Assembly: GCA_965224245.1 (NCBI GenBank)
Contig: OZ245046.1
Location: 2,432,001-2,496,000, forward strand
Source of the DNA: Candidatus Eiseniibacteriota bacterium
GTDB taxonomy: Bacteria; Eisenbacteria; RBG-16-71-46; CAZAMP01
Direction: 5' to 3'
Length of the DNA stretch: 64,000 nucleotides
This document shows positions 31,971 through 46,560 of this stretch, piece by piece (position 1 is the first letter of the stretch; every line of letters begins with the position of its first letter). The notes below the pieces were generated by a model. It was not told where the DNA came from and made no database searches. It was given only the letters and a program-made list of their open reading frames with translations. Made by a program: the position numbers and the translations under genes.

Positions 31971-32295
31971 GCTGAGCCTGTACTCCAGGTCGATGGTCTC
32001 GCCGAAGGCGAGCGTGATGGGTGGTGGAACGTCCATCGGCTGCGCGAAGATGCACTCGGATGGATGTCGTCGTCGAGCGTACGCTGCATATATGGCGCAT
32101 CGCGGGCGTCGTGTCCACTGTCGATCTCCCGGGAATCGCGCGCGACCATCCGTCGTGATCGGGTCGGGAGCGTGTGCTAGAGTGCCTCGTGCGACGTCCG
32201 AGCGTCGTCGGGCCGACACGCCGGCCGCCGGCGCACCGAGCCCACGCGCGCGCGATCATCCCGGATTAAACAGACACTTCCACCGGACGGTGACG

Positions 32296-34071
32296 ATGCT
32301 CGACCGCCCCAGGCCGCCTCGTCCACCGCGGACACGCGGCGCGTGGATCGGCCTCTCGCTCGGCGCCCTCCTGGCGCTGGCAGGGCCGGCGTCACGACCC
32401 GCGGCGCTCGCCGAGACCCTCACTCTCACCCCCGAGTGGTCGGTCGACACCGGCGGATGAATCTTCGCCAACCCCGAGGTCTCGGGGGATCGGGTCTACG
32501 TCGGATCGTGCAACGGGCGGTTCCAGTGCCGCGACCTCACCGACGGCTCGATCCGGTGGAGCTACGACGTCAGCGCCGACGGCGAGGCCCGGAGCTTCCA
32601 CGGGAACATGCTGCTCCAGAAGAACGTGATCCTCGTCGGCACCGACCCCGAGGACGGCTACCTGTACGCGTTCGACCCGCAGACGGGCGAGGTACGCTGG
32701 AAATGGTGGGCCGCTCCCGGGATCGGTACCGACCTGGTCGCGGGGCCCGATCTCGTCTACGCGGTGACGCTGGACGACGTGCTCGTGTGCCTCGACCTGG
32801 AGACCGGCGCCGAGCAGTGGCGCAGCGTCCCCGAGACCACCGTCAGCTCCATGCTCACGCGCGGATCCACCCCGGCGCTCGAGGACGAGACGATCGTCTT
32901 CGCCGGCGTGGCGGGCCGCGTCCAGGCGCTGGACGCGCGGACCGGCGCCGCCGGGTGGTCCACCGAGGTCGGGGGGCCGGTGACCACGTCGGTGGCCCTC
33001 CATCGCTCACGAGCGCTCGTCGGAACCGAGGCCGGCGTGCTCCACGCGCTCGATCGCACCACCGGGACCGTCCTCCGTTCGGTGTCGCTGCCCGGCTCGC
33101 CGCGCGGCGAGATCGTCACGACCGAGGCGGGGCTGGTGGTGCTCGTCGGCGAGGACGGCTGGCGAGCACGGCTGGTCGCGCTGGACGACGATCTGACCGT
33201 CGCGTGGGAGAGTGTCGCCACCGACGGCTCGCTCTGGACGAGCGCCCGCCCGACGCGAGCGGGCCGGTGGATCCTGGTCGGCACGGCCAGCGGCGAGCTG
33301 GCCGCGATCTCGTCCGACACCGGCGAGACCGACTGGACACTCCCGATCGAGCCCATGCGCGACTGGACCGGGGACGGCATCCGGAGCGCCTCCATCGTCG
33401 CCGGCCGCCTCATCGTGGGCACGATCGCCGGGCGACTCACGTCGTATCGACTCCCCCCGGAGATCCTGGCCGGGGCCGGGCCCGTTCGGCGGCCCCGCCC
33501 GCGTCCGGTGGCCATGGCGCCCACGTGAGCCGGCTGACCCGGCGAAGGGTCGCCGCTTCGGGGAAGCGGCCTGGATCACGACTGGACGGTCTCGCTGCGG
33601 TACGTGGATACCGGAACCGATCGGGCTCGCTGGCGTTCCACGATCAACCGGCGCGTGCTGCCGACGCTCTCGCTCGGGATCGAGTTCAACCCGGTCGTCG
33701 GCGAGGTCGGTCCGCTGGTCACGTGGTTCTTCGTCGGTGAGGGGCATGGCACACCCGCCGTCTTCGTCGGCACCAGCTCCGATCGGATCGGAACCGACGA
33801 GGGCGAGCAGAGCTACTACGCGACGGCGACCAAGCGGCTGCCGTGGTGGCCGGTCTCGGCCTACGTGACCGCCAACTACTCCGAGGCGGACGAGTCGTTC
33901 AACGTGCCCTTCGGGGGCACGATCAACCTCACCGAGACGCTGTCGATGCGTCCGATGTACGATGGCGAGCGCACGCATCTGATGGCCACGGCGGCCACCG
34001 AGCGGTTCGCGGTGTCGCTGATCGCAGTCTGGCTGGAGCGGGTCGGCGTCTCGGTCTCCACGGGCTTCTGA
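32296..34071 (+). CDS. Putative triple-selenocysteine protein (591 aa): signal peptide, PQQ-repeat beta-propeller (Sec55), UxxU linker (Sec411, Sec414), C-terminal beta-barrel-like domain
   Basis: Track ORFs 31906..32460, 32608..33528 and 33604..34071 are in one frame, separated only by TGA at 32458, 33526 and 33535. Intervening codons are open and protein-like. A SECIS-like hairpin follows each TGA. Confidence 0.75.
32472..32487 (+). promoter_or_regulatory. Bacterial SECIS-like hairpin for TGA 32458-32460
   Basis: TGA + 11 nt + CCCCGA-GGTC-TCGGGG. Confidence 0.75.
33540..33570 (+). promoter_or_regulatory. Two overlapping SECIS-like hairpins for the UxxU codons
   Basis: CGGCGA-AGGG-TCGCCG (33540-33555) starts 11 nt after TGA1; GCCGCTTC-GGG-GAAGCGGC (33552-33570) starts 14 nt after TGA2. 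Confidence 0.65.
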
Positions 34072-34097
34072 AGGTCTCGACCACGAGGATGGCGTCA

Positions 34098-34769
34098 ATG
34101 CGCAAGCTCGTCCGTCACGCGATCGCGATCGTCGCGGTCGCCGCCTGCACCGCCGTGTTCGCCGATCCCGCCGAGCACCCGGACGAGGCGGTCTGCCGCA
34201 CGTGCGAGATCCGTGGCGGCGGGCACGGTCTCGAGAAGGTCGCCGCACACCGGGAGTACGAGGGCACGTTCTACTACTTCTGTGACCCGGGCTGTGCGGA
34301 CGCGTTCGATGCGTTCCCCGAAGCCTACGCCCACCAGCCCCTCCCGAGGCCGGCCCCCGACGTCACGTTCACCTCGCTCGACGGCTCGTCCGTTCCCCCG
34401 AGCGCGCTTCGCGGGCAGCACGTGCTCGTGGACTTCTGGGCCACGTGGTGCAAGCCCTGCGTGACGAGCATCCCCAAGCTCGTCGAGATCCAGGAAGAGT
34501 TCGGTGAGCGGGGCTTGCGCGTGGTCGGGGTCTCGATCGACGAGATCGAGGCCGATCGCGTCCGTGCGTTCGTCGACGAGAAGAACATGGCGTACACCGT
34601 GGCGCTGGACGGCGGCGACGAGCCGGCCTGGCTGGCCTATCGGGTGGCCGCGATTCCCGCGGCCTTCCTCGTCGATCCCGACGGTCGCATCGTGGCCGAG
34701 TGGAAGGGGGCGGTCGATCCCTCGCGAATCCGGGCCGAGATCGCCGACCGGCTCGGGGGGACGGACTAG
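34098..34769 (+). CDS. Exported YHS-domain + TlpA-type thiol-disulfide oxidoreductase fusion
   Basis: Signal peptide; VCRTC...YEGTFYYFCDPGCADAF YHS/TRASH domain; VDFWATWCKPC, IPAAFLVD. Confidence 0.88.
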   Translation: MRKLVRHAIAIVAVAACTAVFADPAEHPDEAVCRTCEIRGGGHGLEKVAAHREYEGTFYYFCDPGCADAFDAFPEAYAHQPLPRPAPDVTFTSLDGSSVPPSALRGQHVLVDFWATWCKPCVTSIPKLVEIQEEFGERGLRVVGVSIDEIEADRVRAFVDEKNMAYTVALDGGDEPAWLAYRVAAIPAAFLVDPDGRIVAEWKGAVDPSRIRAEIADRLGGTD

Positions 34770-35004
34770 CTCGACCGGGCCCCGGTAGGCCGCCACCGGG
34801 GCGCCCCCCGGCGCTCCCGCGAGGCTCGAGGTCGTCCGGGATCCCCGCAGCGTCCCCAAACCGCTCATCGGTAAGCATTTGCCTCAAAGCTGAGGATCGT
34901 TATATTCTGAACCGACGCCGAGCGGCGATGGGGGTCGTGTGGGCGGTACGGTCCGCACTCCGGGCGACGCGCGTTTGCCGCTGGAGACGCCGCAGGAGAG
35001 CCCG

Positions 35005-35640
35005 ATGTCCGCCGCCGCCGCTGATCTACCTCCATGGATCCACTCGCTGCCGGTTGCGATCTGGGTGTCCGACGAGCACATGCGCCTGTCGTACGTCAAC
35101 GAGGCCGCAGAGCGTCTCTTCGAGATCACCGGCGACGTCGTGGGCTGCCACTGCTTCGAGATCGTGCGCGGCCGCGACGCAAGCGGAGCTCCGTTCTGTC
35201 GCCCCGACTGTCCGGCGGCGGCCGCGATTCGTGACGGGTGCGCGAACGACGGCTTCGATCTCAAGATCGGTGACGGGGTCGGATCCTGGACGCGCGTGTT
35301 CATCGCTCCGGTCGCGGGTCGCTCGTCGCGGCCGATCATTCACTTCGCGGTCCCGATGCAGCGCGAGCACTGCGCCGAGGACTTCGTCGAGCGCGTCGCG
35401 GAGCGGACCCGTGCCGCGTCCCAGGCTCGACTCGACGCGCTCACCGACCGCGAGAAGGAGATCCTGGCACTTCTGGCGCGCGACAAGACGGCACGAGTGA
35501 TCGCCGACGAGCTGGCCATCAGCTATTCCACCGTTCGCAATCACATCCAGCACGTGCTGACGAAGATGGACGCGCACTCGACCCTGGAAGCGGTCGCGTG
35601 CTGGGTGCTCGCGACCGCCGTCGTGTCCGGCGAGGAGTGA
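35005..35640 (+). CDS. PAS + LuxR-type HTH transcriptional regulator (Cys-rich PAS)
   Basis: YVNEAAERLF PAS; GCHCF...FCRPDCP; LTDREKEIL...IADELAISYSTVRNHI. Confidence 0.88.
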   Translation: MSAAAADLPPWIHSLPVAIWVSDEHMRLSYVNEAAERLFEITGDVVGCHCFEIVRGRDASGAPFCRPDCPAAAAIRDGCANDGFDLKIGDGVGSWTRVFIAPVAGRSSRPIIHFAVPMQREHCAEDFVERVAERTRAASQARLDALTDREKEILALLARDKTARVIADELAISYSTVRNHIQHVLTKMDAHSTLEAVACWVLATAVVSGEE

Positions 35641-35769
35641 CGTCCAGCCATCCCGGACGAGAGCGCTACCGTCCGGTCGCGATCACGCGTCCCGCGACCG
35701 GCGATCACGCCACCGGGACCCGCGCCGGCGACGAGATCCTCGACCGATCGCGATCCAGGAGGCCACGCG

Positions 35770-36381
35770 ATGTCGCCGACCGGGACGTTCGAGATCGCCC
35801 CCAGCGGACGGGCGAGGTGTCGCGGGTGCGGCCGTGCAATCGCCAAGGGCGAGATCCGCTTCGGCGAGCGAATGCCCAATCCCTTCGGTGACGGCGAGAT
35901 GACCCTCTGGTTCCATCCACGATGCGCCGCGTACAAGCGCCCCGAGCCGTTCCTGGACGCCCTGTCCTCGGATACGACTCACTCCGGTGAGCTGTCCGGA
36001 CGCGAGTCCCTGATCGACGCCGCGCGGTGCGGCGCCGCGCATCGCCGGCTACCCAGGCTGAGCGGCGCCGAGCGCGCGCCGAGCGGACGCGCTCGCTGCC
36101 GGTCCTGCCGAACGCTCATCGACAAGCAAAGCTGGCGGTTCTCACTGGTGTACTACGAAGAGGGTCGCTTCGAGCCCGCCGGCTTCATCCACGCGGGCTG
36201 CGCACCGGACTACTTCGAGACGACCGTCGTGACGGAGAGCGCGACGCCTCTCGTGGAGGGCGGCGAGCTTCTCGTGGAGCGCGCCGCACACTTCTCGCAG
36301 CTGGACGACGCGGATCGGTTGGCGCTCGCCGAGGCCGTGGCCGGCGGAGGTCCGTCCACGTCCCCGGTGGCGCTCCCGTGA
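35770..36381 (+). CDS. Tandem PARP-type zinc-finger protein
   Basis: Two copies of ExAPSGRARCxxC...HxxC. Confidence 0.8.
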   Translation: MSPTGTFEIAPSGRARCRGCGRAIAKGEIRFGERMPNPFGDGEMTLWFHPRCAAYKRPEPFLDALSSDTTHSGELSGRESLIDAARCGAAHRRLPRLSGAERAPSGRARCRSCRTLIDKQSWRFSLVYYEEGRFEPAGFIHAGCAPDYFETTVVTESATPLVEGGELLVERAAHFSQLDDADRLALAEAVAGGGPSTSPVALP

Positions 36382-37127
36382 CGGCGCATCGCCGGGGAGC
36401 CGCCGGCGGGGTCGCGGCGGATCTCGTGCACGTCTGGGTCATGCCGGTGGATGCGTGCATCGCGGCGCACGGCGAGCCGGCGCTCGTGGAGCTGCTCGAC
36501 GCCGGCGAGCGAGCCGAGTGCGGCCGGGCTCGACAGGACCGGGTCCGGCGTGAACGCCTCGTGTCCAGAGCGCTCCGCCGCGTCGCCCTGTCCTGGCTCG
36601 CCGATCGTCCGGCGACGAGCTGGACGTTCACGGTCAACGCGTTCGACCGGCCCGAGCTCGTCCCGACCCCTGGCGTGCCCCCCATCCGCTTCAACGTCTC
36701 CCACTCCGGCGGTCTGGTCGCGTGCGCGACCGCGCTGGCGCACGACGTTGGAGTGGACGTCGAGGACGTCACCCGGCGGGTGTTCGACCTGGTCGCCATC
36801 TCCGGCTACCTGGCGCCATCGGAGAACGAGCATGTCGTGGCGCAGCCGGCGGCGACTCGCGCGCGCACGTTCTTTCGCTACTGGACGCTGAAGGAGGCCT
36901 ACGCGAAGGCTCGCGGCATGGGGCTCGCGGTGGGCTTCGACTCGTTCGAGATGGATCTCGGCGGCTCCATACCGTGCCTCAGCACCGGGCCGGAACGTAG
37001 CGCCTGGCGCTTCGAGCAGTGGGACGTGGGCGACTCCCACGTCGTGGCACTGGCGGTCCACGCGGAGGCAAACGAGCCGCTCCGGATCGTGTTGACCCGG
37101 CTGGACGATCTGAATCCGATTCCCTGA
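36378..37127 (+). CDS. Sfp-type 4'-phosphopantetheinyl transferase
   Basis: FNVSHSG, VGVDVE, FFRYWTLKEAYAKARGMGL. GTGA overlap with the upstream gene. Confidence 0.92.
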   Translation: MTAHRRGAAGGVAADLVHVWVMPVDACIAAHGEPALVELLDAGERAECGRARQDRVRRERLVSRALRRVALSWLADRPATSWTFTVNAFDRPELVPTPGVPPIRFNVSHSGGLVACATALAHDVGVDVEDVTRRVFDLVAISGYLAPSENEHVVAQPAATRARTFFRYWTLKEAYAKARGMGLAVGFDSFEMDLGGSIPCLSTGPERSAWRFEQWDVGDSHVVALAVHAEANEPLRIVLTRLDDLNPIP

Positions 37128-37356
37128 CACCGCGCCGGGCAGCGCCACGCGTTCGTGGAGCCGGGTCGATCTCTCCCGAGAGTGCGTAGCCGAGGGTGAT
37201 GAGCGTGACGTGACCGCATCCGGCCCGAACGGACGACGGCGCGCTCCGCGGGGCGGAGCGCGCCGGAGGCTCGAACGCGTGTGAGGTGGGCTCCCCGCTG
37301 GCAGGGCCGGGCGGTGGGATCCGATCCTGCCGTCATCCGGCGTCCCGGGACGGCCT

Positions 37357-37929
37357 TCAGAACGTGAAGCGGAGCCCGGCCGCGAACGGCCACACCCACG
37401 AGTTGCTGGTGCCGACCTCGTCCTCGTCGGTGAACGCGATGTCGCCCTGGGGGCTCAACACGAACGCCAGCTGCGGAGCGAGCGCGTAGGCGAGCTTGGC
37501 TCCCACGTTGATCGCCGGGTACGTGAAGCGGTCACCGCCGTCCACGTCGAACGTCATCGCCCCGGCCCCCGCGTTCACCAGAACGCTGAAACGTCCATCG
37601 GGGCTCGTGTACGCGTCGTAGCCGACCTTGGCCATGATGTGCGCCACGTCGATGTCGGGGCCACTGATGTCGCCGTCGAGGCTCGCGCCCCCGTGACGGC
37701 CGTAGTCCACGTCGGCGAGGAGGTAGAGCTTCGGGCTCACCTGGTAGCCTACTCCGAGGCCGAAGCTCCCGCCGGCCTCGGCCGCGTCGGTGATGTCGAA
37801 AGTCGGCACGTTCAGGCCGCCGCGCGCTTCCAGCATCATCGCGTTCTGGGCGATCGCGGCGCCGGGCAGGGTGATCCCGATCGCGAGCGCCGCCGCCAGC
37901 GCGAGGATCGTCGAGCTCGATGCATTCAT
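37357..37929 (-). CDS. Outer membrane beta-barrel protein
   Basis: Signal peptide, amphipathic strands, C-terminal GLRFTF. Confidence 0.82.
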   Translation of the reverse strand: MNASSSTILALAAALAIGITLPGAAIAQNAMMLEARGGLNVPTFDITDAAEAGGSFGLGVGYQVSPKLYLLADVDYGRHGGASLDGDISGPDIDVAHIMAKVGYDAYTSPDGRFSVLVNAGAGAMTFDVDGGDRFTYPAINVGAKLAYALAPQLAFVLSPQGDIAFTDEDEVGTSNSWVWPFAAGLRFTF

Positions 37930-38026
37930 GATGGTCCACTCCTGGTCGTGAGTCCGGGACGTCGCGATCGGCCGTCACCGGCGAACCGGGACGGCCGACG
38001 CGTTTGGTTCAGGTCGGAAGGTGCGC

Positions 38027-38572
38027 CTATGACGGGAGGATCACGCCGTCGATGACGTGGATGATGCCGTTGGAGGTCTCGATGTCGGTCGTGACGACCA
38101 TGGCGTCATTGACCATGACCTTTCCATCCTTCACCTCGATGGTCACGTCCTGCCCCTCGACCGTCTTCGCGCTCTTCAGCTTGACGACGTCCGACGCCGC
38201 CACCTTGCCCGGGACCACGTGGTAGGTGAGGATCTGGACAAGCTTGTCCTTGTTCTCGGGCTCGAGAAGCGTCTCCAGCGTCCCCTCGGGGAGCTTGGCG
38301 AACGCCTCGTCGGTGGGCGCGAACACCGTGAACGGCCCCTCGCCCGACAGCGTCTCGACGAGACCCGCGGCCTTCACCGCGGCCACGAGCGTGTCGAAGT
38401 TGCCGGCGCCGACCGCGGTCTCGACGATCGTCGGCAGAGGCGCGGCGTCGGTCGATGCGGTCGCCTCGTCGTGAGCGTGGCCATGATCGGCACCGCGGTC
38501 GGCGTGGACGGCCGGCGAGAACGTCAGTGTCGTGATCGAGACGAGGGCAGCGAGTGAGAATGCGCGAGTCAT
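38027..38572 (-). CDS. Fasciclin domain protein
   Basis: [47 protein letters not shown]. Confidence 0.95.
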
Positions 38573-38867
38573 GAGTCCGGTCTCCTGTTTCGATGTGGTC
38601 GTTTCCCGGGAGAACCACGGCGAGGCCGACGGCCGTCGGTCCGCGATGCTCCGTCTCGCCCGAGTGTTCCTGACGACACCTGCATGGATGCGCTTGTCCG
38701 AGAAATATATTCAACAAAATCTCAACCTGCGATGGTTGTTGGGGTTACGGAGTCTCAGATCCTGGACAGACACCCGGTCGAGGGCGTCCGAACCTGATGC
38801 CACGCCGGCGAGCGGACCGGCCAGCCGGAGCGTCCGCGGCCGACGTCGGGGGGGCACCGGGGCCGGG

Positions 38868-40466
38868 TCACTCCATCGCGGGAAGGCGCTCGTGGAACGG
38901 ATCCCGGAGCGTGCCGCGTCGGGCTCCCCGGGCGCCGGTCTCGTCGTCGAGAACGCGGACCGTCCACTCGTACAGCTGATCCGCCTCGTCGCGCGTGTTG
39001 CCGACGCAGGTCACGCCGACCTTTCCGAACTGCGAGAGCGCCCCGATCATGTGGAACAGCACGCCGGTCTGCGTCACCGGCCGGAAGCTGAGACCGTGCT
39101 GGGTCAGGATCTCGAGGAAGTCCTCGGGCAGAAGCCCGCGATAGGACGGCGAGGTCAGCGCGTCGGTCGAGAAGTAGAACTTCGGCCGGCCGTCCGGCGC
39201 GTGGAAGACACCGCTGTCGGCGTCCAGCGATCCGCAGGTCAGGAACTCCAGCGCCTGGAACGGATGCGTCGTTCCCCCCATCCGGAGGTTGATCTCGATC
39301 GCCGCGATCCGCCACGGCTCGCCCGGCTCGCGCCAGGCCAGGAAGTCCACCGCGACGCGACTGACGACCCCCTTGGCCGCCAGCGCGTCCGCGATCTTCC
39401 GGGCCTCGGCCTGGATCGCAACCCGGTAGTCGTCCGACGCGGGGAACCGGCAGCCGACGTACGCCTGCTTGTTCGGTCCGCCGAGCACCTGATCGTGAGA
39501 CGAGATGACCGCGTGCGTCCCGTCGGGATGGATGCGCATCTGGACGCTCGGTGATCGTACCTCGCTCGCCTCGATGAACTCCTCCACCACGCCGCCCATC
39601 TCGCTCAGCTTGCGGAAGAAGCTCCCGGGCGTCTCCTCCTCGGCGTTGAACACGAGGTGGTCGAGCGCGGCGTCGATCGCCCGGACACGCGCGGCCCGCT
39701 CGGTCGACGAGGGCGACGGGAACGTGAACATCGCGTTCCCCTCGCCCGAAAAGCTCTCGTCCAGCTTCACGACCGCCCGCTTCGAGGCCGGGCGCGCCTC
39801 GGCGAGGTCGGCCAGCGCCTCGGCGAACTCCCGTCTGGTGTGAAGCCCGTGTGAGCCGTGGGGATGGGGCACGCCGGCATCGGCGAACAGGTTCCGTCCC
39901 CCGCTCTTCGTCCCCAGCGCGCGCAGGTCGGGATCGAGCCCGTTGAGCGGAATGTCGAGCGCCAGCGCCAGACGTCGCTCCAGCTCGGTGGAGTTGAAGC
40001 ACGTCAGGTACGCCTGTCGCGGGTTGCCGATCCAGTGCTTGATTCGCTCGATCGCCCTCGGGCGCTCGAGGATCTTCTCGGTGAGCGCGCGGGAGCTGCT
40101 GTCCATCATCGACAGAAAGCCCAGCCGTTTCGACGCGTGGCTCGATGGCACGCCGACCAGGAGATGCAGGTAGTAGTCGATGATGTCCGGGTGGATCGGC
40201 TGGCTGGATAGATACAGAACGCGCGAGGACGGATGCCGTAGCCGCATCAGCGCGAAGAGCAGTCGCTCCTCGTAGCTGGGTACGCCGGAGATCTTCGCCA
40301 GCTCTTCCTGGTCGAAGCTCAGCGACGGCACGACCACCGAGGTATGTTCGAGTGGACGGGCGCCCTGGATCCTGTTCCAGAGCGGTGGGAGCCGCTTCTG
40401 GAGCTCCAGGAACGCCGAGCGCTCCGTCTCGGAGGCAGCGCCCCGATGAGCGGGCATGCTGGTCAT
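38868..40466 (-). CDS. PGM1-related ATP-grasp peptide ligase family protein
   Basis: VVVPSLS, YEERLL, GTKSGGR, KLDESFSGEGNA, SPSVQ, HDQVLGG, EINLRMGGTTHP. Confidence 0.82.
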   Translation of the reverse strand: MTSMPAHRGAASETERSAFLELQKRLPPLWNRIQGARPLEHTSVVVPSLSFDQEELAKISGVPSYEERLLFALMRLRHPSSRVLYLSSQPIHPDIIDYYLHLLVGVPSSHASKRLGFLSMMDSSSRALTEKILERPRAIERIKHWIGNPRQAYLTCFNSTELERRLALALDIPLNGLDPDLRALGTKSGGRNLFADAGVPHPHGSHGLHTRREFAEALADLAEARPASKRAVVKLDESFSGEGNAMFTFPSPSSTERAARVRAIDAALDHLVFNAEEETPGSFFRKLSEMGGVVEEFIEASEVRSPSVQMRIHPDGTHAVISSHDQVLGGPNKQAYVGCRFPASDDYRVAIQAEARKIADALAAKGVVSRVAVDFLAWREPGEPWRIAAIEINLRMGGTTHPFQALEFLTCGSLDADSGVFHAPDGRPKFYFSTDALTSPSYRGLLPEDFLEILTQHGLSFRPVTQTGVLFHMIGALSQFGKVGVTCVGNTRDEADQLYEWTVRVLDDETGARGARRGTLRDPFHERLPAME

Positions 40467-40537
40467 GCGCGGCAGTATCACCAGGGGTCCCGGGATTGTC
40501 ACGACCGAAACGGCGCCGGCGCCCCCGAGTCCGGGCG

Positions 40538-41686
40538 CTACTCGCCGAACCAGCGCGACAGCCGCTCGGACTCGAACCGCCGCTTCGCCTCGGCGTGCTC
40601 GGCGGAGACCGACCCGAGCGCGATCTCGGGCTCGGGCTGCGCGAAGAAGTCTCCCTCGACCCGCGTCGCCGTCGAGCGGCCCATCTCGATGAAGCAGAAG
40701 CCCCGGCCGTCGAAAGACCCGGGCATCGCCCGGCCGAGACGGTCGGCGGCGATGGCGGCCGCCACCCGCCGACCCTGGAGCTCGGCGAAGAGCCCGGCCT
40801 TCGGAAGCGGGAGTCCGTTCGCGAGCTCGATCCGCGTGACGTCCCCGATCGCGAAGACGCGCTCGTGCTCGGTCTCGAGCGTCGCGGGTCGCACCGCGAT
40901 CCACCCTCCCGGTCCGGTGAGCCCCGACTCGCTGACCACGGTGGGGACCCGGTGCGGGGGCACCGCCATGATCACGTCGGCGTCCAGCGATGCGCCGTCC
41001 GCGTAGCGAACCCGGCCGGGCTCGACGGCGTCGACCTTCCGCCCCACCTCGAACCGGATGCCCCGCTCGGCGAGCCGTTCGCCGAGCCAGCTCGACCCCT
41101 CGGCGCCGGCGTTCGGGAGCAGCATCGGCTGGAGGGTCGTGACGTGAATCTCCGAGCGGTCACGGAGACCCCGATCCCGGAGGTGCTCGTCGAGGAGCAT
41201 CGCGCACTCGTACGGCGCCGGCGGACACTTGTACGGCGCACCGGCCACGACGATCGCGACTCGACCGCCGTCGAACGTCGCGAGCGCCTCGGCACAGGCC
41301 GGGATCGCATCGGCATCGTAGAGATTGTGTCCGTGCTCGACGAGCCCTGGCACCAGATCGGCGCGCGCGACCGCACCGAGGGCGACGACCAGGTAGTCGC
41401 CGTCCAGCATCTCCGCGTCGGTCCGGATCCGGCGAGCGACCGGGTCGATCGTCTGGACATCGCCGCGCACCACCCGGATCCCCCGCCCGGCCAGCGTCGT
41501 GCGCGAGCGCCGCCCCTCCTCGAGCGTGCCCAGGCCCACGAGTGCCCAGAGCTTTCGGAGGCCGATCATGAACGCGTCGCGGCGATCCACGAGCACGACG
41601 TCGTGATCGTCGCCCAGGAGGCTCCGGAGCTCGGTCGCCACCGTCAGGCCGCCGAATCCACCGCCCAGTATCAACGTGCGTGACAT
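40538..41686 (-). CDS. FAD-dependent oxidoreductase (sulfide:quinone oxidoreductase-like)
   Basis: ILGGGFGG, YKCPPAPYE, FAIGD, LPKAG, GFCFIE. Confidence 0.88.
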   Translation of the reverse strand: MSRTLILGGGFGGLTVATELRSLLGDDHDVVLVDRRDAFMIGLRKLWALVGLGTLEEGRRSRTTLAGRGIRVVRGDVQTIDPVARRIRTDAEMLDGDYLVVALGAVARADLVPGLVEHGHNLYDADAIPACAEALATFDGGRVAIVVAGAPYKCPPAPYECAMLLDEHLRDRGLRDRSEIHVTTLQPMLLPNAGAEGSSWLGERLAERGIRFEVGRKVDAVEPGRVRYADGASLDADVIMAVPPHRVPTVVSESGLTGPGGWIAVRPATLETEHERVFAIGDVTRIELANGLPLPKAGLFAELQGRRVAAAIAADRLGRAMPGSFDGRGFCFIEMGRSTATRVEGDFFAQPEPEIALGSVSAEHAEAKRRFESERLSRWFGE

Positions 41687-41843
41687 GCTGTCTCCTCCCC
41701 CGAGCGAGGTCGTCGTCGCTGCGCCGAGGTCGACCCGCCGTCGCGGTGCGGATGATACCCCCGTTGACGCCGGATGACATCGCCGCCTATCGTCGCGATC
41801 GATGCCGGCGAGCAGTGGGCCCCTCACCGGTGGAGACGGCTGC

Positions 41844-42353
41844 ATGAACCACCGCGACGACGACACGATCGCCCTCCCGGGCACGGGCGGGTGGGCCGTC
41901 CGGCCGACACGCGAGCCGGACCGCGAGCCGTTCGGCCGTCTGCTCTCGTCGGTCGGACTCCCCGAGAGCGGCTTCACCGACCAGTTCGAGCACTTCGTCG
42001 TGGCCGAGCGCGACGGCCACATCGTCGGCGGGGCGGGCGTCGAACGGTACGGCCGCGATGGGCTCCTGCGCTCGGTGGTCGTCGATGCATCCCAGCAACG
42101 GAGCGGGCTCGGGTCACGTCTGGTCGCCGAGTGCGTGACGCGAGCCGAGAGCGACGGGCTGGGCGCGCTCTACCTGCTGACGGAGACCGCACCCGAGTTC
42201 TTCGCCGCCCTCGGCTTCGTCCGGATCGATCGCGCGTCCGTGCCCGAGGCCATCGCGCGATCGAGCGAGTTTGCCAGCGTCTGCCCGGATTCCGCGGTCG
42301 CCATGATGCTCCCGCTGGTCACCGGCTCGACCGCACCCGATCGCGCCCCGTGA
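41844..42353 (+). CDS. arsN2: GNAT N-acetyltransferase, ArsN2-like
   Basis: LLRSVVV, GLGSRLV, YLLTETAPEFF..LGF, SSEFASVCPDSAVAM. Confidence 0.75.
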   Translation: MNHRDDDTIALPGTGGWAVRPTREPDREPFGRLLSSVGLPESGFTDQFEHFVVAERDGHIVGGAGVERYGRDGLLRSVVVDASQQRSGLGSRLVAECVTRAESDGLGALYLLTETAPEFFAALGFVRIDRASVPEAIARSSEFASVCPDSAVAMMLPLVTGSTAPDRAP

Positions 42354-42589
42354 TCAACCGGTCACCGCTGATCGAGGCTCGGCCGCCGCATGGCGCGGTG
42401 ACCGCCAATCCGGTCTCGCCGGGAAAGGACAGATCGGTGTCGACCCACCATGCCCCCGGCCGCATCGGCCGGCAATACCTCACGTCGAGGCTCGACGTCC
42501 TCCTTGCCGTCGGGGTCGCGACCGACTGCAGCTCGGGTCGCCACATGGGCGTCGAGTCCTCGCGACTTCGACGCGCGCGGAAACGGTGG

Positions 42590-42754
42590 CGCGCGGGATC
42601 GATCATGCCCCCGATGCCGTGGCCGGCGCACCGCGACGTCACGGACGAGGATCTGCACGCCATCTGGGCGTACCTGCGCACGGTGCCGGCCATCAGCAAC
42701 GGGGCGCCGCGGCCTGCGCCCCCCGGCGAGGGTGCGGCCTCGGCTCCGCACTGA
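42590..42754 (+). pseudogene. C-terminal remnant of a diheme c-type cytochrome-like gene
   Basis: IMPPMPWPAHRDVTDEDLHAIWAYLRTVPAISN with no CxxCH or start upstream. Confidence 0.6.
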
Positions 42755-42764
42755 CGGTCCCGGC

Positions 42765-43970
42765 GTGCCGAAGAACGCCACGATCGTCCTCTGCAACCGG
42801 CAGGGCGAGCTTCTCGGGGAGCTGGATCCGATCCGTGTCGAGATGCCGTGGTGGCAGGAGGTCTCCGACGTCGTCGCCGCGATCGCCGAGCGGGATCGGA
42901 TCCGGATCACCGTGCTTCGGCTTCTCCAGACGCGTCTGCCGAGCCCCACGTCCCCGAGCGACGCGAGCGACGTCACGTATCTCGCCGAGCTGGACCCGGC
43001 GACGTCGCCGCCTCGCCTGCGGAAGACCGCCTTCGCCAACCCGCCCCATCCTCTGCGATGCGACTACGCCGAGCCCGGAGGACCGACGGCCCTGATCGAG
43101 TGGGCGCGTACCGAGCTGGCCCACGCGGGGCTTCCGGAGACCGGCCCGCCGGCGCAGATGCGCACGTGGAACCTCTCGGCCATCTGGCGATTCGACACAC
43201 CCGGCGGACCCGCGTGGCTGAAGGTCGTGCCACCGTTCTTCGCGCACGAGCCGCTCTTGATCGATCACCTGACACCGGGTCCCGTCCCCGAGCTGATCGC
43301 GCACGCACGGGGTCGGAGCCTCCTCCGGCACGTCCCGGGACGGGACGTCTACGAAGGAGACATGGCCGCACGCCTCCGGCTCCTCGACGTGGTCGTCGGA
43401 CTTCAGCGCGCGAGCGTCGACCGCCTCGACGCGCTGACGGCGATCGGCCTCTTCGACTGGCGTACCCCGGCGCTCGTCGACCGGATGGCGAGGCTGCCGG
43501 CGTACGCGCGCGATGCGGATCGCGAGGCGGTGGAGACGCTCGTGGCGGGGATCGAGGATCGGCTCGAGGCGCTGGCCGCGTGCCGCTTTCCCGACACGCT
43601 CGTGCACGGCGACGCGCACCTGATGAACGCCCTTCTCGGTGACGACGGCGAGATCACGATGCTGGACTGGGGCGATGCCGGCGTCGGTCACCCGCTGTTC
43701 GATCTGGACGCGCTCGAGCGGTGGCGTCCGCCGGACGAGATCGCCACCGTGCGCGACCGACTCGTGTCGCTCTGGTCGGATCTCGTTCCCGAGCCGGACG
43801 TACGCCGGGCCATCGCGCTCTGCCGGCCGCTGGGCGCCCTGCGCGAGGCGCTCGTGTACGCGGGATTCGTGGAGAACGTGGAGCCCGACGAGCGGATCTA
43901 CCACGCCGACGACGTTCCGGCGGCCCTCGCCACCGCCGTGGAGCGCGCCGCAGCGGAGCCCACCGCATAG
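42765..43970 (+). CDS. Aminoglycoside phosphotransferase (APH)/kinase-like protein
   Basis: AWLKVVP, TLVHGDAHLMN, LDWGD, HPLFD. Confidence 0.85.
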   Translation: MPKNATIVLCNRQGELLGELDPIRVEMPWWQEVSDVVAAIAERDRIRITVLRLLQTRLPSPTSPSDASDVTYLAELDPATSPPRLRKTAFANPPHPLRCDYAEPGGPTALIEWARTELAHAGLPETGPPAQMRTWNLSAIWRFDTPGGPAWLKVVPPFFAHEPLLIDHLTPGPVPELIAHARGRSLLRHVPGRDVYEGDMAARLRLLDVVVGLQRASVDRLDALTAIGLFDWRTPALVDRMARLPAYARDADREAVETLVAGIEDRLEALAACRFPDTLVHGDAHLMNALLGDDGEITMLDWGDAGVGHPLFDLDALERWRPPDEIATVRDRLVSLWSDLVPEPDVRRAIALCRPLGALREALVYAGFVENVEPDERIYHADDVPAALATAVERAAAEPTA

Positions 43971-44095
43971 GTCCGACACCCTCATGCACGCCGGCCGGCG
44001 ATGAACCCGTTCACGTCGTCGGGCGCCCGGTCAGCGAGCCATGCCATGGCGGACGCCGTGCACGCCGACGCGGCGGCGAGCGTCGCCGCCGTCGA

Positions 44096-44674
44096 TCATC
44101 GCGCCGACGACCCCGACGGCGCATGGTCGGTGTTGCGAGTCGCCTCCGGATCGTCCGGGCTCGATGCAGGGGCCGGCATCTCCGGATCGGGACCCGGCTC
44201 GGCGAGCAGCGCGGCGAGCCGGGCCTCGAAGGCCTCGACGTCCTGCGGTCGGAACCCCTCGTGGCGGATTCGAAACGCACCGGTCCGGTCGAAGACGAAG
44301 GCCGTGGGCACCACCTCGAGCCCGAACGCCTTCGCCAGGTCACCCCTGGGATCGCGCAGGACCGGCAGCGTCACCTCGAGAGCCTCGATGAAGCGGTCGG
44401 CGGCCTCGGCGCGGCGGTCCAGGTTCACCGTGACCACGCGGAGTCCGTCGTCGGCACGCTCGGCGGCCAGCGTCTGCATCCATGGAAAGGACGAGCGGCA
44501 CGGCACACACCAGGATGCCCAGAAGTCGACGTAGACCACCTGCCCCGCGTACGGGGCCGGATCGTCGACCAGCGCGAGCACGGCGTCGAGAGAGGGCGCC
44601 GGCTCGTCGGCGGATGCGATGGAGGCTCCCATGGCGAGAGCGCACAGGACGGCGGCGGTGAGACGCGGGTGCAC
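44096..44674 (-). CDS. TlpA family thiol-disulfide reductase (exported)
   Basis: GTG after AAAGGAG; signal peptide; VDFWASWCVPCRSSFP, VPTAFVFD. Confidence 0.92.
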   Translation of the reverse strand: MHPRLTAAVLCALAMGASIASADEPAPSLDAVLALVDDPAPYAGQVVYVDFWASWCVPCRSSFPWMQTLAAERADDGLRVVTVNLDRRAEAADRFIEALEVTLPVLRDPRGDLAKAFGLEVVPTAFVFDRTGAFRIRHEGFRPQDVEAFEARLAALLAEPGPDPEMPAPASSPDDPEATRNTDHAPSGSSAR

Positions 44675-44869
44675 GTGGGCTCCTTTCGCTCGGTGGACGA
44701 CACGGTCGCGAAACCGAAGGCGCGGCGTCACACGCGCGCGCGGCGGCATCGACGCCGCGGGGGCGCGTGCGAGTCGCCGTCACCGACCTGTTGCACACGA
44801 TCCCCCGAGGCGGGGTTCCCGCCGATCGCGGCGTCCTCGCGCTCGGACGCCGACCCCGTGGCGGGCGCC

Positions 44870-46300
44870 CTACCGCACGACGACGATCCGATGCACGGCC
44901 TGCAACAACCCGTTTCGCAGCCCGACGTGATAGACCCCGGGCGCAACCCGGCGTCCCAGGCGATCGGTGCCGTCCCAGAGCACGTCGCCGGCGGCGGTGG
45001 CGATCGGCGAGGCGATCCGCCGGCCCGACGCGTCGACGACGACGGCATCGGCGCCCACCAGCGCATCGCCGACGATGAGATGGACCGCGCCCCGCGTCGG
45101 GTTCGGCGTCAGCGACCGCAGCAGCACCGGGGAGGCCGGCGTCTCGGCGACCGAGATCAGCGGGTCGCCCTCGGCGACGTACACGTTCCAGCTCCCGCTC
45201 GAGTCGTCGCACCACGCAACCGCCACCTCGCCCCCGGAGTTCGTGGTCACCGACGGCTCGCGCACGTCGCGTCCGATCCCCAGCTCCTGATCGAACGTCC
45301 AGGTGCCCGAGAGATTCCAGGCGACGATCAGACGCTCGTCGACCATCGACAGCGACTCGTCCCAGGACTCGTGTCGCCACGCGAGAACCGGCCGTCCGAC
45401 CTGGGTCAGGTGCAGCCACAGCTCCTGCGGCCACTCGAACAGAGTTCCCGTGTGTCCGGTGCCGATCGCGTCGGCGTCGCCGAACGCGCCACCGGTCCCC
45501 GTCGCGACGCTCACCTGGTTGCACGGACACGTGGGCTGCTGGCCGTGCGCGGCCAGCGCCATGGTCCACGTGTTCGGGTCGACGGCGAGATCGAAGCGGA
45601 TACCGGCGCCCTCCATCACCGGCGATGCCGGCTGCCACGTGGTGCCGTCGAACTGGCGTCCCTGCACGCCGGGGAACGCCGCCCCCGTATCGAGCCAGGT
45701 CACCAGCAGTCGATCCTCGGCGTCGACCGGGCTCAGCTCGACGGAGAGTTCACCGATCGGATCGACCGCGATCGGTCCGGCCAGGATCAGCGGCGCGGAC
45801 CACCCCTCGGTGACGAGCTCGGAGAAGAGCACGTGGAAGACGCCGCTTCCCTCGTCCAGCTCGGCCCAGGCCACGTGGGGCCCCGAGGCCTTCGCGGGAG
45901 ACGGATCGATCGGCGTGCCGAGCCCGGCGCTCCCGACCACGTCGGCGTCGTGCCACGTCCCGCTCTTCCAGCTCCGGAAACGAACCTGATCGGCGTCGTC
46001 TGACCAGACGACGTAGATCTCGTTTCACCTGAGACAGGTGTAGTGGTCGAAGTCGTGCCCGACGCCCACGGTCTCGATTGGACCCCATCCCCCCTCGCTC
46101 TGGTCCTGGTGGAGGATCTCGTCGCCTTCCTGCCAGAGCAGGTGCCGGACGTCGAACGCGTCGGTCGTGAGGATGGGAGCCGTCGACGGGATCGGCGTCG
46201 TGGTGTGCTGGGTCTCGATCCACCCGGCCGCCACCGGCGACGAGACCGTCGCCAGGAGCGTGACGACCGCGGCGGCGCCGACGGGGCGTGGCGCGGGCAT
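44870..46300 (-). CDS. Putative selenoprotein (476 aa): secreted beta-propeller-like protein with CxxU (Sec92) and FlgD-Ig/T9SS-like CTD
   Basis: Track ORFs 46025..46300 and 44870..45940 are in frame; the only stop between them is TGA 46025-46027 in HYTCLR-U-NEIYVVW. RBS GAGGAGG, signal peptide, CTD PNPTRG...WDGTDRLGRRVAPGVY. Confidence 0.8.
45994..46013 (-). promoter_or_regulatory. Bacterial SECIS-like hairpin for TGA 46025-46027
   Basis: Minus strand: TGA + AACGAGATCTA (11 nt) + CGTCGTCT-GGTC-AGACGACG. Confidence 0.8.
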
Positions 46301-46560
46301 GGGGTCCTCCTCGGATAGTTGAGCATGCGAGTCGCGGGTCCCGGCCGGGGCCGCGCGAGGAGACCCGACGAGTGTACACCCCCCGCGCGATCGGGTCCGC
46401 CTCGCTCTCGACTACCCGCGTTCGCATCGGCGGGGCGCGCCCCCGCCCGCGACACGGCGGCCGGTGGTCTGCGATAATCACCCCCGTGCATCCACGAGAC
46501 CGCGTCGACGTCCCGGCGGCTCGCCGTCGCCGGCCCTCCCTCGAGCCCGGAGGCATCACG

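Follow-up and report, generated by a model that had tools for sequence, protein, structure and literature searches.

Predicted selenoprotein modules and a conserved UxxU/YHS-TlpA gene pair in a 14-kb region of a Candidatus Eiseniibacteriota genome

To our knowledge, almost all known redox chemistry of the bacterial envelope is thiol-based. In the ScsB-TlpA-PprX pathway of Caulobacter, as it is presented in PMC3322552, TlpA reduces the exported peroxiredoxin PprX. Bacterial selenoproteins are encoded with a UGA codon that is followed, within the open reading frame (ORF), by a hairpin, the selenocysteine insertion sequence (SECIS), of which fdhF of E. coli provides the archetype and which, according to the model as given in a 2026 review (PMC13188914), has a loop of 3-9 nt with a G in the first two loop positions at a UGA-to-loop distance of 16-37 nt. 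Among the selenoproteins in Table 1 of that review, NF041115 and NF041384 contain a UxxU motif (U, selenocysteine, Sec) and are linked to YHS-type metal-binding domains, and selenocysteine in outer-membrane barrels is represented by the GSU2204/MtrB-PioB-type barrel NF041027 and the TonB-dependent receptor FCYXU type NF049945. Here we analysed a window of 64,000 nucleotides from a Candidatus Eiseniibacteriota genome (G000:C1:2432001-2496000), in which positions 32296-46300 hold two units on opposite strands. In unit 1, a frame that joins a propeller with one in-frame TGA (module A) to a predicted UxxU protein with two further TGAs (module C) is followed by a gene for an exported TlpA-like protein with an additional YHS domain (TlpA1, or YHS-TlpA); in unit 2, a second propeller gene with an in-frame TGA (gene B) is followed by another exported TlpA-like gene (TlpA2). 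We regard it as likely that A, B and C are three genuine selenoprotein modules, decoded by SelA, SelB, SelC and SelD via SECIS elements within the ORFs, and that C is partnered with YHS-TlpA.

The hairpins of all three modules comply with the bacterial SECIS model (PMC13188914), in that they follow the UGA and have small loops starting with GG or GU (GGUC in A, GGUC in B and GGG in C) at spacings of 17, 19 and 31/22 nt, respectively; the difference lies in module C, in which one hairpin apparently serves both UGAs of the UxxU motif, located 9 nt apart. As in the account of ScsB-TlpA-PprX in PMC3322552, an exported TlpA-type protein is encoded together with an exported redox protein, and DsbD-type genes, whose membrane protein product supplies the electrons in that pathway, exist in G000 as well, but the partner there is a peroxiredoxin, whereas here it is a predicted barrel-like diselenol UxxU protein; compared with the TlpA of that pathway, TlpA1 has an additional four-Cys YHS/TRASH-like domain. 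Module C resembles NF041115 and NF041384 in its UxxU motif and the link to YHS-type domains, but it has no sequence match to either family, and the YHS domain is found here on a Cys-only partner and not on the selenoprotein itself. With NF041027 and NF049945 it would share a Sec in an outer-membrane barrel, but neither model matches, and C is small (about 220 aa) with an N-terminal UxxU arm. Module A has its fold in common with the eight-bladed propellers of the BamB (YfgL)/PQQ type, but differs from BamB in a Sec/Cys pair and an FHG/GTD constellation, both absent from BamB.

The genome under study (6.94 Mb in 27 contigs; GC content of the window, 70%) is able to decode UGA as Sec. It encodes a tRNA-Sec (71.9 bits; ARAGORN call SeC (tca)), SelA (427.6 bits), the SelB wing domain (59.5 bits) and SelD (378.4 bits), all of which pass the curated cut-offs, and SelD is itself of the Sec type (GAG-U-ASKL). 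The two in-frame TGAs at 32458-32460 (+) and 46027-46025 (-), which the initial annotation had pointed out from the letters of this DNA, are indeed present, each with the TGA-11 nt-stem-GGTC arrangement described there (stem of 6 bp in A, 8 bp in B). Likewise, the exported TlpA-type genes with WCKPC and WCVPC motifs could be validated, both scoring above the Pfam Redoxin and AhpC-TSA cut-offs, and it was rightly anticipated that standard gene callers would miss the selenoprotein genes, the corresponding database proteins being truncated at the TGAs. The notion that the GGTC hairpin is a special shared signature did not hold, since this shape corresponds to the general bacterial SECIS consensus, and because the SelD gene has a similar hairpin (TGA-N12-8 bp stem-GGT), the GGTC hairpins of A and B represent the ordinary SECIS shape of G000. 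From codon conservation, reading frames and hairpins we conclude that, as far as sequence can tell, A, B and C are exported proteins whose TGAs encode selenocysteine by means of SECIS hairpins.

In module C, the motif TGA-GCCGGC-TGA (33526..33537, +; TGAs at 33526-28 and 33535-37) reads Sec411-Ala-Gly-Sec414 and is followed by a SECIS with an 8-bp stem and a GGG loop at distances of 31 nt from the first TGA and 22 nt from the second (33552..33570, +); the C body (33538..34068, +) comprises 177 beta-rich residues and terminates in ...VSVSTGF. The comparison set for modules A and C consisted of 201 genomes of the class, and as the related genomes in these comparisons are kin (25 genera for C), the counts overstate independence. 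With 33538-34071 as the query, the C body matches 42 of the 201 genomes at 46-63% identity, and in nearly all cases a stop is followed directly by an open frame of ~177 codons. In the 39 loci fetched for closer comparison and G000, which together provide 41 copies from 40 genomes (leaving out G053, a split copy in G105 and fragments in G096), TGA-N6-TGA precedes PGEG(A/S)PLRGSG in 41/41 copies, with the consensus (P)T-U-(S/A)G-U-P, which in G000 reads T-U-A-G-U-P. This conservation overturned the interpretation of TGA-GCC-GGC-TGA at 33526-37 as a plain double stop. Elsewhere, C is a stand-alone gene with its own signal peptide and a linker (..RPRPTASAPT) before the motif.

The hairpin following the UxxU codons is maintained across the 41 sequences, with 93.9% of cells paired compared to 37-72% in slid controls. 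Pair 33-39 is CG in 37 sequences and UA in three, G000 among them, and this change is brought about by the synonymous substitutions CTC>CTT (Leu) and GGG>GGA (Gly). In the protein database, C is represented by 772 clusters; without exception, the best 120 are truncated versions of 142-166 aa. What counts against the selenoprotein reading of C is that no full-length Cys-form homologue was found among these 120 of the 772. Full-length members gave no Pfam or NCBIfam match at E <= 0.1. As leads only, the nearest Atlas clusters (query: database protein P0160) are auto-named DUF3570 or TonB-receptor-like barrel, and the nearest one is mostly from Acidobacteriota. The C body is predicted as a likely outer-membrane barrel.

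TlpA1 (34098..34769, +), an exported protein with a WCKPC motif, starts 26 nt past the frame of unit 1. It scores above the Pfam cut-offs for Redoxin, AhpC-TSA and YHS (PF04945; 31.8 bits vs a gathering cut-off of 30.3), i.e. a four-Cys YHS/TRASH-like domain is fused to a redoxin domain. For Redoxin, TlpA1 reaches 70.9 and TlpA2 61.0 bits (cut-off 26.6), and each has a hydrophobic N-terminus; we call both TlpA-like instead of TlpA proper, because they fail the cut-off of 230 bits of the TlpA equivalog NF047696 (69.6 and 49.6 bits, respectively). The possibility that the two are recent duplicates was rejected, as they are 33% identical. In 31 of the 39 other loci, two of them with partial hits, the UxxU gene is followed on the same strand by a TlpA1 orthologue at a distance of 15-178 nt; these orthologues are 41-50% identical, the YHS part being within the alignment, and the six cysteines of CxxC...CxxxC (YHS) and WCxxC (redoxin) are invariant in all 30 orthologues recovered (30/30). 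Eight loci are without a TlpA1 orthologue, two of which end less than 240 nt past the gene.

From the conserved gene order we conclude that C and YHS-TlpA form a conserved functional unit, and on this genomic basis a functional partnership between the two proteins is predicted with good confidence. Two observations speak against this interpretation or its extension to metals: six loci lack a TlpA gene although their sequence continues for 1.5 kb or more past the C gene; and the putative metal link rests only on the name of the YHS domain, the invariant cysteines and CusB-like genes in 2/39 loci. Between a metal-based and a purely redox role of the pair, we lean slightly against the former, while taking it as a serious option. 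Further same-strand neighbours of C are diverse (CusB-like, Na/H exchanger, YceI and phosphodiesterase genes in two loci each of the 39). The CusB-like membrane-fusion genes (HlyD_D23) follow the UxxU and YHS-TlpA genes on the same strand in L083:206-2817 and L085:337-1521, with an OEP gene also present in L083, and G180 (L105:2432-4375) harbors two tandem UxxU genes followed by a single YHS-TlpA gene. The 6.9 Mb of G000 contain only 13 loci of the Redoxin family, two of which are the last genes of the compact same-strand units 1 and 2; assuming roughly 5800 genes, which is an estimate, it is unlikely that both adjacencies arose by chance.

In contrast to the stand-alone C genes, C is joined to A in G000. 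The frame of unit 1 (32296..34071, +) comprises 591 codons and a terminal TGA, with U55, U411 and U414 as internal TGAs, and encodes in this order a signal peptide, propeller A, a Pro/Arg linker, T-U-A-G-U-P and the C body of 177 residues. With TGA read as U it contains no other stop, and the GC content at third codon positions (GC3) of its parts is 0.83/0.93/0.90. Upstream of the UxxU motif lies module A, and the sequence across the junction, ...RLTSYRLPPEILAGAGPVRRPRPRPVAMAPT-U-AG-U-PGEG..., retains the linker of the C family. We rather favour translation of 32296-34068 as a single chain. This also decides on the earlier claim that the first Sec gene directly precedes its TlpA gene, which is correct if TGAs 33526-28 and 33535-37 are read through to 34068, and incorrect otherwise, as a frame of 177 codons would then intervene.

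The alternative that survives best is that unit 1 encodes two proteins: translation would stop at 33526 and release a propeller of 410 residues, the barrel frame would be decaying or separately started, and TlpA1 would be a leftover of the former C/YHS-TlpA pair. In line with this, and weighing against a single chain, the A-C fusion is seen in G000 only, where C has no signal peptide of its own, the last blade forms the end of the protein in the A orthologues, and the C body has no match in the loci of the five genomes with A orthologues. The fusion could have arisen by a recent rearrangement in which C lost its signal peptide. Moreover, multiple UGAs generally lower the yield of read-through, and with three of them on the same message, little full-length product is to be expected. 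A decaying frame is difficult to reconcile with a GC3 of 0.90 and about 60% identity over all 177 residues of the C body, or with the intact UxxU motif and the intact SECIS with its compensated stem. The linker before the motif (..RPRPRPVAMAPT) is kept in frame, and the copy concerned is the single C copy of the genome. A separate start is countered by the list of ORFs, according to which the first ATG, GTG or TTG past the TGA at 33535-37 is found only at 33604. We consider two separate products the less favoured outcome compared to the single chain.

Module A consists of a signal peptide and a propeller with 137.9 bits for Pfam PQQ_2. An AlphaFold model of residues 1-410 (predicted local distance difference test, pLDDT, 88.4) shows an eight-bladed, BamB-like fold, and the best Foldseek matches of this model are BamB structures (TM 0.72/0.84). 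Nevertheless, the identification of A as BamB was rejected (TIGR03300, 111.8 bits vs 285.2; NF008351, 92.8 vs 423), as was that as a PQQ-dependent dehydrogenase (TIGR03075, 64.2 bits vs 480; no PQQ-dehydrogenase model passes). The TGA of Sec55 (32458..32460, +; context SVDTGG-U-IFANPEV) is followed by a SECIS with a 6-bp stem (CCCCGA/TCGGGG) and a GGTC loop at a TGA-to-loop distance of 17 nt (32472..32487, +). At E <= 1e-20, A matches in 8/201 genomes of the class, G000 included, and five of the others (G168, G186, G075, G152 and G045) have a TGA at the identical column, e.g. WSVDTGG-U-VFSSPAV, each with an in-frame signal peptide upstream of it. In G007 the Sec column is occupied by Ala, and in G005 the match begins at query residue 70-81, the Sec site being outside the alignment. 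A phylum-wide profile search found no orthologues beyond those of the class search.

The database entries of A carry a corresponding trace. A word-indexed search had returned three proteins, and an exhaustive search of 1.84 billion representatives was used instead, which yielded 203 matches at E <= 1e-30. Among the best 150 matches, 72 are of at most 620 aa, and of these 23 start at the residue directly after U, 31 between U and Cys72 and 15 further down, a pattern expected from mass truncation at an in-frame TGA. The three that are full-length have either Cys55/Cys72 (P0032 and P0052) or Ala/Val (one protein) at these positions, and this joint loss suggests that residues 55 and 72 work as a pair. 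Near-invariant in the family are Cys72, Phe101-His102 and Asp117. Going by propeller topology, Sec55 would precede the first strand of blade 1, in a loop, with Cys72 at the following turn of this blade, and we infer that U55, Cys72, His102 and Asp117 are all in loops on the same face of blades 1-2. U55 and C72 might thus form a redox pair of the selenenylsulfide type at the top face, next to His102 and Asp117; a reservation here is that their proximity follows from propeller topology only.

The hairpin of Sec55 is by itself less compelling. Across the six orthologues, 91.7% of its cells are paired, compared to 44-67% in slid controls, and two pairs show compensatory changes, one of which (columns 15-30) joins two third-codon positions; this level of covariation was reached by 6/500 shuffles. 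On the other side of the balance, the 60-nt fold around the TGA is no more stable than shuffles (z = +1.46), and the stem is made of codons of a P-x-V-x-G repeat motif. Since such codons at 70% GC tend toward a stem of this kind, the A hairpin alone is weak evidence, and the case for Sec in A rests on the conserved TGA.

Several further observations concern the A family. In G075, the A orthologue (L055:2-5710) ends a same-strand row of ArsR-rhodanese, methyltransferase, MBL-fold, MFS transporter and second methyltransferase genes, which gives a weak metalloid hint for A, and a methyltransferase frame of this row ends with ..DIGLWKG at a stop that is possibly a Sec codon. DUF4386 genes adjoin A orthologues in two genomes (L055:8762-9778 and L058:2671-4559). 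P0069 and P0076 are A-type propellers, called from right after the Sec, which are fused to a C-terminal domain of ~260 residues, so that the A family forms other fusions as well. Among the PDB matches of the A profile is tetrathionate hydrolase (7cqy, 6l8a; E 1.9e-23), a PQQ-like propeller without the cofactor that acts on sulfur chains and to which A, as a putative chalcogen-active propeller, may be functionally analogous.

Gene B (44870..46300, -) has 476 codons and encodes a signal peptide, a propeller with the motif C89-L-R-U92 and a C-terminal domain resembling FlgD_ig and tails of the type IX secretion system (T9SS). The TGA of Sec92 (46025..46027, -) lies within C-L-R-U, and its SECIS (45994..46013, -) has an 8-bp stem (CGTCGTCT/AGACGACG) and a GGTC loop at a TGA-to-loop distance of 19 nt, with a fold of -23.4 kcal/mol (z = -2.56). 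Outside the common C-terminal tail, only 4 out of 5.8 billion proteins match B, one of them being its truncated self; further homologues were found in eight genome loci and five metagenome loci. In three distinct homologues, U92 aligns with the second Cys of a CxxC motif (CGVC, CSVC and CLSC), and in homologues of a C-S-x-x type with V, L or S. In the metagenome contig L042 (1059 bp; 38% protein identity overall), U92 aligns with a TGA (TCLL-U-NEIF), and the SECIS core of this contig differs from that of B by a single spacer base. B has an invariant QPTCPCN motif.

A model of B (pLDDT 80.8) shows an all-beta propeller for residues 27-378, with propeller lectins and sialidases as the nearest folds. 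Two strands are joined by a tight turn with C89 and U92 on either side of it, in contrast to thioredoxins, whose CxxC caps a helix. As a single sequence, the tail remains below the cut-offs of TIGR04183 (16.4 vs 23) and PF13860 (FlgD_ig; 17.7 vs 27), and the profile of the B family matches the C-terminal domains of FlgD, PorZ and PorU in the PDB with E about 1e-6. We predict B to be a propeller that is secreted or located at the surface and carries a CxxU turn.

TlpA2 (44096..44749, -; exported, WCVPC) lies ~120-190 nt past gene B as the last gene of the two-gene minus-strand unit and scores above the cut-offs of Pfam Redoxin and AhpC-TSA. Its adjacency to B is not conserved: tblastn at E <= 1e-4 detected a TlpA gene near B homologues in 0/13 loci (at E <= 1, two matches with E 0.5-1 at one locus). 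Conversely, none of 11 TlpA2-homologous loci contains a B-like gene. The arrangement may be local or fortuitous, and a local pairing of B and TlpA2 appears doubtful to us. For A, a TlpA gene was likewise found by tblastn near none of the orthologues (0/5 loci), and no thioredoxin-fold family occurs among 59 neighbour ORFs of 11 A- and B-homologous loci. The proposal that a TlpA protein is paired with each Sec protein is thereby upheld for unit 1 through module C, and not supported for A and for B. As an observation on the TlpA-like proteins themselves, one or two in-frame TGAs are present in ~20 of the top 55 TlpA2-like matches from other class genomes, and Sec-containing TlpA-like genes seem to be common in the class; G000 has at least two, with W-U-PVC near C1:4920000 and W-U-VGC near C1:4157000, and in addition GSIT-U-PYC at C1:4437671.

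Between the units lie an SQR-like gene, an ArsN2-like gene and a PAS-LuxR gene, all of which Pfam and NCBIfam recognised in agreement with the initial annotation. The GNAT protein is an ArsN2 (NCBIfam, 146 bits vs 125), and the SQR-like protein is a pyridine-nucleotide disulfide oxidoreductase (Pfam). The latter was also considered as a selenoprotein with HxxU and rejected, as it has no in-frame TGA (165.2 vs 525 bits) and is an ordinary Cys-type relative. A promoter-like site just upstream of the PAS-LuxR gene (TTGCCT-16-TATATT, 34879-34906, +) suggests that this gene is transcribed apart from unit 1.

The initial annotation had united all these genes, from 32296 to 46300, into a single extracytoplasmic selenium-based redox or metal(loid) system with a dedicated TlpA for each selenoprotein, including the SQR-like, ArsN2 and PAS-LuxR genes. 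Two selenoprotein/TlpA units 13.5 kb apart in a genome with 13 Redoxin loci, the true family membership of ArsN2, and the row of ArsR-rhodanese, methyltransferase, MBL-fold and MFS genes next to the A orthologue of G075 would all fit such a system. Its coherence is contradicted by the intervening genes, which lie on both strands and include one preceded by the promoter-like site, and by the neighbourhoods of the homologues: the SQR, ArsN2 and LuxR families recur beside none of them (0/59 and 0/59 neighbour ORFs of A, B and C homologues), and the pairings of B with TlpA2 and of A with TlpA are not conserved. Furthermore, G001, the only other genome of the same family that was searched, has no A, B or C at the thresholds used. 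We conclude that the 14 kb between the units are ordinary, unrelated gene content and that a single system is improbable.

Finally, we evaluated how often the hairpin pattern occurs by chance. The strict pattern TGA-N11-stem (>=5 bp)-GGTC, by which the initial annotation had hoped to enumerate the selenoproteome, is found 16 times on both strands of G000 and is not enriched, as the same pattern occurs 10-54 times after eight non-stop control triplets (0 after TAA, TAG and TTA). However, only the two TGAs of the window are located in long frames with coding-type GC3 on either side. The check for such hairpins being equally common after ordinary stops did not refute the case, as a loosely SECIS-like hairpin follows 17/3254 TGAs that end coding-like frames. 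A genome-wide screen by GC3 alone was discarded as uninformative, its 176 candidates being for the most part neighbouring genes or antisense frames; a hairpin-filtered screen left 26 candidates of mixed quality. At G000:C1:308150 (+), an in-frame TGA in an ArsM-like frame (..DIDLWTG-U-IAGALLE) precedes an 8-bp hairpin, and this frame probably encodes a Sec-type arsenite methyltransferase; a further candidate is located at G000:C1:5236936 (-), with TGA-N12-8 bp stem-GGTC and GC3 of 0.93/0.88 on either side (..PSAANS-U-GTKVWLAV..).

It is hardly credible that the TGAs are nonsense mutations or assembly errors in pseudogenes and the hairpins by-products of GC-rich coding sequence, an idea to which the control triplet counts and the properties of the A hairpin lend some support, but which is contradicted by the TGA column kept in A (five genomes), C (41/41) and B (one independent contig), by intact frames that are coding-like on both sides of the TGAs, by compensatory stem changes at synonymous sites, by the full Sec machinery of the genome and by re-assembled contigs, in which 32200-46400 was reproduced with 0 differences (Logan contigs; runs X1 and X2 cover the whole interval and X3 covers 32200-36099, all three represent one sample, probably the source sample, and short joints with sides of 20-27 nt were ascribed to cross-matching sequences of other organisms).

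What the sequences show directly are the recoded codons and their conservation, the hairpins, the frame of the fusion and the conserved gene pair. From these observations a mechanism can be proposed that would extend to one-chain translation, redox pairing of U55 and C72, and any metal or redox role. The U55/C72 propeller would be an exported, separate selenoenzyme family that was recruited by fusion in G000. At the outer membrane, the UxxU diselenol arm would most likely bind a soft, copper-like metal or cycle between diselenide and diselenol, and YHS-TlpA would reduce this arm or exchange metal with it. The electrons would come from a membrane protein of the DsbD type (DsbD_TM), two of which G000 encodes elsewhere in the genome. 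A more far-reaching version, which we put forward as speculative, is that the UxxU barrel and YHS-TlpA are a widespread, unrecognised outer-membrane module capturing or redox-cycling a soft metal or chalcogen, fused in G000 to the propeller, and that one message would yield two products, as termination and Sec insertion compete at UGA-411: a free periplasmic propeller and an outer-membrane-tethered form with three Sec residues, respectively.

As far as we have seen, the pairing of C with YHS-TlpA, the A-C fusion and family B appear to be new. Table 1 of the 2026 review (PMC13188914; 119 selenoprotein families/subfamilies) contains no propeller, UxxU barrel or B-like entry, and the terms 'PQQ', 'propeller' and 'Eisenbacteria' are without mention in this review. 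In the accessible text of the deep-Sep paper (PMC12013277) there is no PQQ, propeller, Eisenbacteria, TlpA or BamB, and literature searches found no paper on such proteins, with the provision that the supplementary tables of both selenoprotein papers could list candidates. In NCBIfam scans, no selenoprotein model matched A, B or C.

Three selenoprotein families within 14 kb, absent from the 2026 catalogue, Pfam and NCBIfam, illustrate how annotation systematically loses selenoproteins. Two of the three are large, as evident from the representatives of A and the clusters of C, and nearly all of their database entries are N-terminally truncated 'hypothetical proteins' without signal peptide and active-site residue. 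The A-C fusion lends itself as a natural experiment on the use of one SECIS by two UGAs and on the partitioning of products between termination and read-through, and the UxxU/YHS-TlpA pair is a clonable two-gene system for studying the role of selenium in the envelope. On the genomic evidence, the conserved pair of C and YHS-TlpA points to an undescribed selenium-based activity in the bacterial cell envelope.

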